Virus record (IMG/VR): IMGVR_UViG_3300032237_000809
Location: 1 to 64,000 of that record
DNA from: a virus
Lineage: Duplodnaviria > Caudoviricetes
DNA length: 64,000 bases
Strand: one strand, 5' to 3'
The notes under the pieces were generated by a model, which was given only the letters and a program-made list of their open reading frames with translations, was not told the DNA's origin and searched no databases. The position numbers and the translations under genes were made by a program. This document shows positions 36,987 to 41,225 of the stretch, piece by piece; position 1 is the first letter of the stretch, and the number at the start of each line of letters is the position of its first letter.

Positions 36987-38876
36987 ATGACAATCGAAGA
37001 TATTCAACTAAAGCAATCCGATGCTTATCTCTCTAATCCAAATTTAAAGAGAGCAAACACAACTATTGAGTGGACTGAAGATCAAATTATTGAGTTTTTG
37101 AGATGTAAAGAAAATCCTGTATATTTTGCAAAAAATTACATTAAAATTGTTTCTCTTGATGAAGGACTTGTTCCTTTTGAAATGTATCCGTTTCAGGAAA
37201 AATTAGTTCAACGATTTCATGAGAATCGTTTTAATATATGTAAAATGCCACGCCAAACCGGCAAATCTTTAGCATTAGACACTCCAATTCCAACTCCAAA
37301 TAGTTGGACAACAATGGGGGATTTAAAAGTTGGGGATGTTATTTTTTCCCCCTCTGGCGATAGTGTTTCGGTTACTATGAAAACTGAAATAATGTATAAT
37401 CATAATTGCTATAAATTATATTTTGATAATGGTGAGGAAATAGTTGCAGATGCGGGTCATTTATGGGAGGTTGATAGTTCATATTGGAGAACTGGTAAAA
37501 AAGTATTAACATCTCAAGAAATATACGATAAGTACGAAACAAAAACTAAAAATAAAAGAGGAAGTGGCGTTCAAGGGTCATTATATATTGAAAAATCCAA
37601 ACCAATCAATTTTATTAAAAACTCATTAGATATTGATCCATATCTTCTTGGAGTTTGGTTGGGAGATGGATATTCTTCAGATGGAAGAATTGTAGCACAT
37701 AAAGATGATTATGAGTTCTATAAGACTATATTCGATATAGAGCATGAAAGAGAAGATGGTAATTGTATGAGATTTAAAGTTAGAGATTTTAAATTAAAAT
37801 TAAAATCTCACAATTTATTAAAAAACAAACATATTCCACAAAATTATTTAAGATCTTCCTATGAAGATAGGTTAGAATTACTTCGTGGATTAATGGATAC
37901 CGATGGATCTGTTACAAAAAATACTAGATCTTTTGAATTTTATCAAAAAAATTATGATTTTATATTACAAGTTGTGGAATTGCTCTCTACCCTTGGCATT
38001 AAATCTAATATTAGAAGAAAAAAAATAAAAGACATTTACTATCACACAGTATCATTTACTACCAAAGAAAGAATATTCAATCTTTCAAGAAAATTGAATA
38101 ATATTGATGTGCTAAGACCAACAAGAATTCAAGAAAATCGACATTATATTCATAAGATAGAAAAAGTTGATAGTGTTCCAGTTGCTTGTATTCAAGTAGA
38201 TAGTGAAGATCATCTATTCTTATGTGGTAAGACTTTTATACCAACTCACAACTCTACAACTTGCGTATCCTACTTACTCCATTATGCAGTTTTTAATGAT
38301 AATGTAAATATTGCTATTCTAGCAAACAAAGCATCTACTGCTAAAGATCTTTTAGGAAGATTGCAACTAGCATATGAAAATCTTCCTAAATGGATGCAAC
38401 AAGGTATTGTATCTTGGAACAAGCAATCATTAGAACTAGAAAACGGATCAAAAATTGTTGCTGCTTCAACTTCCGCATCTGCTGTTCGTGGTGGATCTTA
38501 TAATATCATATTTTTGGACGAATTTGCGTTTATTCCAAATAATATTGCAGATCAGTTCTTTGCGTCGGTTTATCCTACTATTTCTTCCGGTAAATCTACC
38601 AAAGTAATTATTGTATCTACGCCTCACGGTATGAATCACTTCTACCGTATGTGGCATGATGCTGAGAAGGGTAAAAATGAATATGTTCCAACAGATGTTC
38701 ATTGGTCTGAAGTTCCTGGTAGAGATGCAAAATGGAAGGCATCTACGATTTCCAACACCAGCGAATCCCAATTTAAGGTAGAATTTGAAAGTCTTGACTA
38801 TACAACTGTTATAAATAATGGTATGATAGATGTATCTATCGGAGATTTATATGAACAACTCAAAAACGAACAGTAA
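36987..38876 (+). CDS. gp17: terminase large subunit gp17, N-terminal (ATPase) fragment with a contiguous intein and a split-intein N-half
   Basis: Walker A PRQTGK/STT interrupted by an intein; Walker B IIFLDEFAF; VSTPHG; ends QFKVEFE followed by 28-aa IntN. Confidence 0.95.
   Translation: MTIEDIQLKQSDAYLSNPNLKRANTTIEWTEDQIIEFLRCKENPVYFAKNYIKIVSLDEGLVPFEMYPFQEKLVQRFHENRFNICKMPRQTGKSLALDTPIPTPNSWTTMGDLKVGDVIFSPSGDSVSVTMKTEIMYNHNCYKLYFDNGEEIVADAGHLWEVDSSYWRTGKKVLTSQEIYDKYETKTKNKRGSGVQGSLYIEKSKPINFIKNSLDIDPYLLGVWLGDGYSSDGRIVAHKDDYEFYKTIFDIEHEREDGNCMRFKVRDFKLKLKSHNLLKNKHIPQNYLRSSYEDRLELLRGLMDTDGSVTKNTRSFEFYQKNYDFILQVVELLSTLGIKSNIRRKKIKDIYYHTVSFTTKERIFNLSRKLNNIDVLRPTRIQENRHYIHKIEKVDSVPVACIQVDSEDHLFLCGKTFIPTHNSTTCVSYLLHYAVFNDNVNIAILANKASTAKDLLGRLQLAYENLPKWMQQGIVSWNKQSLELENGSKIVAASTSASAVRGGSYNIIFLDEFAFIPNNIADQFFASVYPTISSGKSTKVIIVSTPHGMNHFYRMWHDAEKGKNEYVPTDVHWSEVPGRDAKWKASTISNTSESQFKVEFESLDYTTVINNGMIDVSIGDLYEQLKNEQ
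37266..38252 (+). mobile_element. 329-aa intein with LAGLIDADG endonuclease, class-3 signature
   Basis: SLALDTPIPTP...ADAGHLW...LLGVWLGDG...LLRGLMDTDG...VACIQVD...IPTHN|S; removal restores GKSTT. Confidence 0.95.
38790..38873 (+). mobile_element. split intein N-fragment (28 aa, SLDYTTVINNGMIDVSIGDLYEQLKNEQ)
   Basis: Follows extein EFE; block-A-like xLDY.T.I plus I.DLY..L, as in TerL atypical split inteins. Confidence 0.85.
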
Positions 38877-39996
38877 AAATATCACAAAAGAACAATTGGA
38901 ACATTTGTATCGTGATAAAAAAATGACTTTAGATGAGATTGGGATATATTTTGGATATGCAGATCGCCAACCCATTATTCGTTTATTTAAAAAATTTAAT
39001 ATAAAATCAAGAACAAAAGTGGAAAGTTCTGCCATAGTATTTGAAAATAAAAACAATATTCCGTCGAGAGATGAATTAAAAAAAGATTTAGAAACTATGA
39101 GCGTTTCTAAGGCAGCAAAAAAATATAATATTCATAGAGGATCTTTAACAAAAATTATAAAAAAATATGGTTTGGAAATAGATTATTTTGTAAATTTAAA
39201 TATCAAAGAAAATATTAACAACGAAGAATATAAAGATTTATCCCCCATAGAATTATCTTTGATATTTGGCGTAGAAGTACAGACTATAAAATACTACAAA
39301 AAAACATTCACTAGAAACCAATATGATTTAGAAACCATAAAGGAAAAATTTAACAAATATAATTTTAATTTTAATAGTAAAAGTTTAATAAAACAAATTA
39401 AATGTTCCGATAAAAATTTATATGATTCTATTTTTGAATTAACAAAAAATCAGTATTTACAAAGTAATAAATTTACTGAAAGAATTTATCGCCTTTTTAA
39501 TAATTATAGTGAAGATAAAATTGAACAATGTAAATATTGTAAAAATCCATTAAAATTTTATACTTATGAATTGGGATATGGTAATAGTGAGCATAATATT
39601 TGTAAAATGTGCAACCATTCTATTAATGGGGTATCATTAATTTCCCAAAAATTGTTTTGGAGCATTTATAATTCATTGAATTTTCAAGAAAAAAAGTTTT
39701 GCAAATTTTCAGAATTAAATATAGAAAAGAAAATTTATATAACTAGCAATGATAAATGTAAGTTACTAGAAGTAAAAAATAAATTAAATAAAAATTGCTA
39801 TTTTATTGATTTTATTTTCAATAATAAAATTATAGAATTTGATGGAACTTATTATCATAAAGATAAAGATAAAGATATAGCAAAAGACAAATTTTTAAAT
39901 CTCAAAGGTTATGAAGTTCTCCATATTGATGAATTGGAATATAAAAATTATCCCGAACAAATTTTAAACAAATGCATACAATTCCTGAAAGCGTAG
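38851..39996 (+). CDS. free-standing Vsr/DUF559-like homing endonuclease between the split-intein halves
   Basis: N-terminal HTH repeats, CxxC..CxxC, C-terminal IDF...IIEFDGTYYH...KD.FL...GYEVLHI.E; GGAG SD before ATG38851; TATAAATA at 38810. Confidence 0.85.
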   Translation: MNNSKTNSKNITKEQLEHLYRDKKMTLDEIGIYFGYADRQPIIRLFKKFNIKSRTKVESSAIVFENKNNIPSRDELKKDLETMSVSKAAKKYNIHRGSLTKIIKKYGLEIDYFVNLNIKENINNEEYKDLSPIELSLIFGVEVQTIKYYKKTFTRNQYDLETIKEKFNKYNFNFNSKSLIKQIKCSDKNLYDSIFELTKNQYLQSNKFTERIYRLFNNYSEDKIEQCKYCKNPLKFYTYELGYGNSEHNICKMCNHSINGVSLISQKLFWSIYNSLNFQEKKFCKFSELNIEKKIYITSNDKCKLLEVKNKLNKNCYFIDFIFNNKIIEFDGTYYHKDKDKDIAKDKFLNLKGYEVLHIDELEYKNYPEQILNKCIQFLKA

Positions 39997-40319
39997 TATT
40001 AAACAAAAAAGGACACAAAATACTTTCTCCTGAAGGTTTAGTATCCTTTTTTGGTATAAACAAAATAACTAAAAATAGTTACATTCATCTAAAGTTTTCT
40101 AATGGAAATGAATTGAAATGTTCTTTAGATCACCCATTATCTACAATTGATGGAATAATTAAAGCAAAGGATTTGGACAAATTTACAGAAATTTATACTA
40201 AGGATGGTGGATGTTTTTTAAAAAAATCAAAAATCATTGAGCAACAAATAGATCTATATGATATTGTAAATTCTGGTATTAACCACCTATATTATTCAAA
40301 TGATATAATATCACATAAC
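39972..40319 (+). mobile_element. split intein C-fragment (116 aa)
   Basis: KILSP.G...F.GI, block B KCSLDHP, block F LYDI, block G LYYSNDIISHN|C. Confidence 0.9.
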
Positions 40320-41225
40320 TGCGAGTTCTTAGGATCGGTAGATACATTAATCAATGCATCAAAACTTAGAACGATGGTTTATGAGGATCCATCTAAAAGA
40401 AATAAAGGTCTTGATGTTTATGAAGATCCAAAAGAAGATCACAATTATTTAATTACTGTTGACGTGGCAAGAGGTGTTGGAAACGATTATTCTGCATTTA
40501 TAGTATTTGATATTACAAATTTTCCATACAGAACAGTAGCAAAATATAAGAATAATGAAATAAAACCTATGATGTTTCCTGCTATTATTCATGAAGTAGC
40601 AAAAGCGTATGATGATGCTTGGTTATTGATTGAAGTTAATGACATTGGTGATCAGGTGGCAAGTATTCTTCATTTTGATCTTGAATATGATAATGTTTTA
40701 ATGTGTTCAATGCGCGGCCGCGCAGGTCAAATTGTAGGATCTGGATTTAGTGGTAAAAAATCTCAACTTGGTGTCCGTATGACATCAGCGGTTAAAAAGT
40801 TAGGATGTTCTAACTTAAGAACCTTAGTTGAGGACGATAAACTTCTGATTAATGACTATGATATGATCTCAGAACTTACTACATTTATTCAAAAAAGTAG
40901 ATCATTTGAAGCAGAAGAGGGATGTAATGATGATTTAGCAATGTGTCTTGTTATATTTTCTTGGTTAGTTGCTCAAGATTATTTTAAAGAAATGACGAAT
41001 AATGATGTTCGTAAAAGAATCTATGAAGAGCAAAAGAATCAAGTAGAACAAGATATGGCACCCTTTGGATTTATTTTGGATGGATTAGATGATCCCGAAA
41101 TTTACGTAGAACCTGAGACTGGTGATAGATGGTTATTTGCAACAGCACAAAATGAAAATCAACCTTTAGAAATTTGGAATGTTGATGAGTATGGTGATAG
41201 ATCTCATGAATGGAATTATCGCTAA
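39972..41225 (+). CDS. gp17: terminase large subunit gp17, C-terminal (nuclease) fragment preceded by split-intein C-half
   Basis: After SHN: CEFLGSVDTLI..., VDVARG.G.DYSA, IE.NDIG, NDDLAM RNase-H-like nuclease motifs. Confidence 0.95.
   Translation: MHTIPESVVLNKKGHKILSPEGLVSFFGINKITKNSYIHLKFSNGNELKCSLDHPLSTIDGIIKAKDLDKFTEIYTKDGGCFLKKSKIIEQQIDLYDIVNSGINHLYYSNDIISHNCEFLGSVDTLINASKLRTMVYEDPSKRNKGLDVYEDPKEDHNYLITVDVARGVGNDYSAFIVFDITNFPYRTVAKYKNNEIKPMMFPAIIHEVAKAYDDAWLLIEVNDIGDQVASILHFDLEYDNVLMCSMRGRAGQIVGSGFSGKKSQLGVRMTSAVKKLGCSNLRTLVEDDKLLINDYDMISELTTFIQKSRSFEAEEGCNDDLAMCLVIFSWLVAQDYFKEMTNNDVRKRIYEEQKNQVEQDMAPFGFILDGLDDPEIYVEPETGDRWLFATAQNENQPLEIWNVDEYGDRSHEWNYR

Follow-up and report, generated by a model that had tools for sequence, protein, structure and literature searches.

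An uncultured T4-like phage with a probable GOS-TerL-type split intein in its fractured terminase gene

The closest described counterpart of the split intein analysed here is GOS-TerL, a natural, atypically split intein of the phage terminase TerL that combines Ser at intein position 1 (Ser1) with Cys as the first residue of the C-extein (Cys+1) (Bachmann and Mootz 2015; reviewed in PMC11766414, see also PMC10189870). We compare it with a locus at positions 36,987 to 41,225 of a 64,000-nucleotide (nt) stretch, hereafter the window, which comprises positions 1 to 64,000 of IMG/VR virus record IMGVR_UViG_3300032237_000809 (125.5 kb, about 58% complete). In this locus, TerL is divided into an ATPase half that ends in a short N-terminal intein fragment (IntN) and a nuclease half that starts with a long C-terminal fragment (IntC). 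We conclude that this 'fractured' terminase gene, from a T4-like phage that is uncultured, very probably encodes a functional split intein of class 1 and of the GOS-TerL type. This assignment draws on the anatomy of the locus, homology, conservation of catalytic residues, purifying selection and signs of mobility; the reaction pathway would be the one reported for GOS-TerL.

GOS-TerL is described as splicing efficiently (PMC11766414, PMC10189870) and as following the class 1 pathway, with an oxoester intermediate succeeded by a thioester (PMC11766414). The review further states that it tolerates Cys1, that its 37-residue IntN can be shortened to 27-28 residues and that its IntC accepts the IntN of AceL-TerL (PMC11766414). 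The original prediction for this locus, made from the DNA letters alone, had assumed that the family begins with Cys, a premise made outdated by GOS-TerL as a characterised Ser1/Cys+1 member. The novelty claimed for such a split intein falls away too, GOS-TerL having been described and biochemically tested in 2015.

Fractured genes form the second point of comparison. Dassa et al. 2009 reported a terminase locus from Lake Gatun whose split falls at an 'unusual point' and whose C-terminal intein part is long, as well as Vsr-like free-standing endonucleases between split-intein halves, the terminase locus included (PMC2677866). This endonuclease family was later named EDxHD (PMC3239194).

Anatomy of the TerL locus

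The TerL locus consists of three overlapping genes, all on the + strand (Table 1), and its TerL is closest to the terminases of T4-like cyanophages (for example Synechococcus phage S-SRM01, with 80% DNA identity over the extein parts). Ser1 is residue 602 of the TerL N-half (codon AGT, 38790-38792) and directly follows an N-extein ending in ...VEFE, while IntC opens the C-half open reading frame (ORF; 39972-41225). In TerL relatives without an intein, ...EFE runs straight into CEFLGS; removal of both intein pieces would therefore restore the host motif, and Cys+1 is thus a native, conserved TerL residue. Cys1 relatives with IntNs of 28-31 residues occupy the identical EFE/CEF junction.

IntC matches CatC, the solved consensus atypical TerL intein (6DSL_B; E = 4.7e-16, IntC residues 9-117), and also gp41-1 (E = 1.2e-5); its block-B His and C-terminal SH(N) are aligned in these matches. 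The 28-residue IntN, too short a query by itself, had no match among PDB sequences. GenBank isolate phages contained no close relative of IntC, the best being Vibrio phages at 31-35% identity. The sequence features that define a class 1 intein (HINT domain) are present: a position 1 nucleophile (Ser right after EFE), the histidine of the block B TxxH motif (here SLDH, with Ser replacing Thr in this IntC and in many relatives) and a C-terminal His-Asn (SHN) followed by a +1 nucleophile (Cys at 40320-40322). Across the IntC alignment, no sequence departs from the block-B His, the terminal His-Asn or Cys+1. Also present are the features of atypically split TerL inteins, namely insertion at EFE/CEF of a T4-like TerL, a short IntN (about 25-37 residues; 28 here) with a long IntC carrying blocks B, F and G (116 residues), and homology to a characterised member, CatC. 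Ser1 together with Cys+1, conserved across the clade described below, is the combination that characterises the GOS-TerL type. On re-reading the sequence, the positions and residues given by the original prediction (Ser at 38790, a Cys-free IntN of 28 residues, Cys+1) proved exact, and its account of the anatomy, an atypically split TerL intein with a short IntN and a Ser1/Cys+1 pair at the ATPase/nuclease junction, is borne out by the CatC match and the EFE/CEF junction.

The resemblance to GOS-TerL extends to the T4-like TerL host, the split after the first helix with blocks B, F and G in IntC, the Ser1 and Cys+1 residues, an IntC of about 115-116 residues and a metagenomic origin. Unlike GOS-TerL, whose natural IntN has 37 residues, the window's IntN has 28, and a further, contiguous intein sits in its host gene. 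AceL-TerL and the Cat-TerL consensus (PDB 6DSL) share the insertion site, the split architecture and a homologous IntC, but begin with Cys and fall outside the Ser1 clade in our tree, at roughly 40-50% IntC identity.

The contiguous intein lies in the Walker A loop. Its junctions (GK/S...HN/S, with Ser1 and Ser+1) were set by comparison with the relative L062, which lacks this intein and reads GKS-IT. Because of this second intein, mature TerL needs one cis-splicing and one trans-splicing event. By analogy with GOS-TerL, IntN at the end of the ATPase half would bind IntC at the start of the nuclease half and complete the HINT fold. Ser1 would then attack the preceding peptide bond in an N-to-O shift to give an oxoester, and Cys+1, the native extein residue, would take over the N-extein as a thioester. 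Cyclisation of the terminal Asn and an S-to-N shift would leave full-length TerL reading ...EFE-CEF..., with the Walker A intein spliced out in cis. We take the endonuclease gene between the halves to be the probable mobility module, through which the element spread and the intein came to be split. The 125.5-kb record yielded no second TerL nuclease half; 40320..41225 is the only copy in it.

Ser1 as a clade character and its chemistry

One rival reading is that Ser1 is an artefact of sequencing or assembly, or else a mutation by which a Cys1 intein was recently inactivated; its AGT codon does lie one base from TGT. With the first 125 C-half residues (IntC plus the start of the C-extein) as the scored region, a protein search returned 260 clusters, of which 120 were listed; among the matches listed, 114 of 120 clusters share 56-100% identity with those residues. 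A search with the end of the N-half found split N-half clusters whose IntN starts with Ser and with Cys in equal number (13 each). At loci with both halves visible, an IntC at least 63% identical to the window's was always paired with Ser1 (16 loci), whereas IntCs at 55% identity or less were paired with Cys1. The Ser1 codon is AGT in some relatives, TCG in others, including the closest ones (L001 and L002), and TCA in L010. Because no Cys codon can be reached from TCG or TCA with fewer than two changes, Ser appears to have been selected and is no fresh slip from TGT.

Phylogeny gave the same picture. A maximum-likelihood tree of 26 IntC sequences placed the 14 Ser1 rows together in a single group (support 95/94), and a single label change suffices to explain the distribution. 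The nearest outgroup of this group is a Cys1 intein (L062:497-3211) whose halves flank a GIY-YIG/NUMOD3 endonuclease in place of the Vsr-like one; one split point therefore houses different endonucleases. Two proteins, P0047 and P0084, carry the TerL intein with Ser1 and Cys+1 as a contiguous (cis) element, and P0047 additionally has a Walker A intein. Ser1 was thus found in three different codons, in many independent assemblies and in a large, monophyletic clade. The observation that the original prediction had named as fatal to its reading, Ser1 as a singleton among Cys1 homologues, was not made: the whole clade keeps Ser1. As far as sequence comparison allows, we reject both a singleton Ser1 and a sequencing error, and the chance that Ser1 is an error or a recent inactivating change is close to nil.

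Ser1/Cys+1 is hence the mark of an entire clade of TerL inteins from uncultured T4-like phages rather than an oddity of one sequence. Only residues 24 and 30 of IntC cleanly separate Ser1 from Cys1 members (Asn in GINK versus Gln, Lys or Leu), a basis too thin to name a determinant of Ser1.

Several points weigh against a working intein of the GOS-TerL type. The link to GOS-TerL consists of the site, the split point, the residue pair and the fragment lengths, which the two have in common, and of homology to the Cat consensus, not of sequence identity, and we infer splicing by the window intein itself from its described relative. The Ser1/Cys+1 pair inactivates AceL-TerL, so that its activity depends on context, and it also inactivates gp41-1, according to the review (PMC11766414). 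The IntN hairpin in the window is shorter than in the Ser1 IntNs of relatives, which have 34-38 residues. Given the incomplete record, the genome could conceivably hold a second, intact TerL elsewhere.

The inactive pairs in AceL-TerL and gp41-1, together with the formally uphill transfer from oxoester to thioester and a split site near the domain boundary, lend some weight to a role for the halves as a non-covalent zipper that no longer splices and simply holds the ATPase and nuclease halves together. A zipper, however, could do without Ser1, the block-B His, the terminal His-Asn and Cys+1; each of these is kept across the clade, Ser1 through three codons. Compared with nine relatives, IntC has a ratio of non-synonymous to synonymous substitution rates (dN/dS) of 0.07-0.15, the same range as the flanking exteins; judged by this ratio, IntC is under purifying selection. 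Since the characterised relative also splices efficiently, we regard a zipper as very unlikely. Of the two alternatives in the original prediction, 'unusual chemistry' is backed by the GOS-TerL literature, while the zipper loses ground to the retained catalytic residues.

Splicing could also run through a relay, in which an internal IntC Cys passes the N-extein from Ser1 to Cys+1. IntC holds two Cys: that of KCSLDH in block B and that of GGCF, near residue 80. The first had been singled out in the original prediction as a sign of special chemistry, but it is also found in Cys1 relatives, in the Cat consensus and in gp41-1, and we reject it as a compensation specific to Ser1. The GCF Cys has a more suggestive distribution: all Ser1 members have it, as does their nearest Cys1 sister (L063), and the other Cys1 relatives lack it. 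In the sequence, however, it falls in the stretch that separates block B from block F, at a distance from the catalytic blocks; block F carries Asp and not the Cys of class 3 inteins; and mutational work on GOS-TerL is reported, in the review's account of it, to support a direct Ser1-to-Cys+1 shift (PMC11766414). We therefore hold a relay through either Cys to be very improbable. It is a similarly long shot that the GCF Cys is a relay thiol or otherwise tunes the active site, easing the uphill oxoester-to-thioester step; if true, this would be a mechanistic variant not described for GOS-TerL. Better supported than a relay is the suggestion, from sequence comparison, that the Ser1/Cys+1 pathway marks a large, mobile and monophyletic natural clade that includes contiguous forms and 28-residue IntNs.

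The natural IntN in the window is already at the minimal length of 28 residues. The original prediction had proposed such a Cys-free IntN for protein labelling; the absence of Cys from its 28 residues is confirmed, but GOS-TerL with a short IntN has reportedly been used for N-terminal chemical labelling, in work said to have appeared in J Pept Sci in 2017. With both the mechanism and the labelling use already published for GOS-TerL, the locus opens no new question. Sequences of the Ser1 clade could nonetheless supply natural variants for engineering split inteins with short IntNs.

Mobility of the intein and the endonuclease gene between its halves

Comparison with the close relative L001 revealed the expected mark of homing. 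Between the window's IntC (39972-40319) and that of L001 (L001:2160-2507), the synonymous divergence (dS) is 0.11, about ten times lower than in the flanking TerL exteins (1.2-1.4), and the intein therefore appears far younger than the surrounding gene. This difference indicates that the intein cassette was recently transferred between diverged phages. The two IntCs are 98% identical, yet the IntNs differ at 11.5 non-synonymous sites, including the Ser codon family, so IntN and IntC alleles are reshuffled in nature. Such reshuffling fits the reported promiscuity of the GOS-TerL IntC.

Two relatives, L011 and L005, have lost the endonuclease gene by deletion and retain a split Ser1 intein with only 58 and 104 nt between the halves (L011:5857-6010; L005:5811-6003). 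In L011, the first and last portions of that gene have been fused at a shared AATTGGAA, which leaves a mini-ORF, and IntC starts with GTG. By its sequence, L011 is a deletion derivative of an endonuclease-bearing locus. These endonuclease-less derivatives show that the split state persists after endonuclease loss.

Table 1. Features of the TerL locus, with positions in the window.
Feature	Position	Strand	Evidence or remark
TerL N-half gene, 629 amino acids (aa)	36987..38876	+	ATPase domain; Pfam Terminase_6N, E 5.1e-14; contiguous intein inside, IntN at end
Contiguous intein, 329 aa, with LAGLIDADG endonuclease domain, in Walker A loop	37266..38252	+	Pfam LAGLIDADG_3, E 1.5e-13
IntN, 28 residues, Ser1 (AGT), no Cys	38790..38873	+	Stop codon 38874-38876
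Putative T4 late-promoter-like TATAAATA and GGAG	38810-38817 and 38841-38844	+	Within IntN coding sequence, upstream of ATG 38851
Free-standing homing endonuclease gene	38851..39996 (381 aa) or from ATG 38830 (388 aa)	+	Pfam DUF559
IntC, 116 residues, with block B (SLDH), block F and block G (SHN)	39972..40319	+	CatC match and alignment
C-extein: Cys+1 (TGC, 40320-40322), then EFLGS and TerL nuclease domain	40320..41225	+	Pfam Terminase_6C, E 1.4e-12

The endonuclease encoded between the halves combines N-terminal helix-turn-helix repeats with a C-terminal Vsr-like (DUF559/EDxHD-type) nuclease domain, detected by Pfam DUF559 at E = 2.7e-7 (30.8 bits against a cut-off of 20.6; residues 319-386). 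PHROGs yielded weak matches only, over the N-terminal part, to families annotated as HNH endonucleases. With I-Bth0305I and other EDxHD homing endonucleases (PMC3239194) the protein shares the C-terminal Vsr-like domain and N-terminal DNA-binding modules; by sequence, it had no significant match among PDB sequences, the solved structure of I-Bth0305I included. Its gene overlaps IntN at the 5' end and IntC by 25 nt at the 3' end, and the gene with the same 25-nt overlap recurs in L060, L064 and L066.

The locus shows both hallmarks of the fractured genes of Dassa et al. 2009: its split-intein halves are neighbours on one strand and flank an endonuclease ORF (38830/38851-39996, overlapping both), and the endonuclease is of one of the two expected types, Vsr-like (EDxHD) or GIY-YIG, here the former as recognised through DUF559. 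Likenesses include the order of N-half, endonuclease gene and C-half with overlapping frames, the T4-like phage host and T4 late-promoter-like elements. There is no difference in kind; the window belongs to a longer assembled context, 125.5 kb, which also contains a gp41-1-type split intein.

T4 late-promoter elements have been reported upstream of such endonuclease genes (Dassa 2009, PMC2677866). By analogy, TATAAATA is a putative T4 late-promoter-like element for the endonuclease gene, with GGAG between it and the ATG at 38851. The ATAAAT core of TATAAATA is invariant in 10 aligned relatives, synonymous positions included, and in the endonuclease-less L011 the first T is lost.

Other inteins in the record and in related phages

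Outside the window, at about 77200-79250 of the record (L070:340-2386), the N-half of the gp41 helicase ends in an 88-residue IntN nearly identical to that of gp41-1. This near-identity places the phage close to the source of gp41-1 (Dassa 2009). The gp41 IntN is followed by a 221-aa ORF, at the place where gp41-1-type loci have a GIY-YIG endonuclease, and a weak intein C-terminal match lies further downstream (79621-80064). In related phages, the portal protein genes also hold an intein (L060:8975-11236 and L061:8530-10791; Pfam Intein_splicing within Portal_T4).

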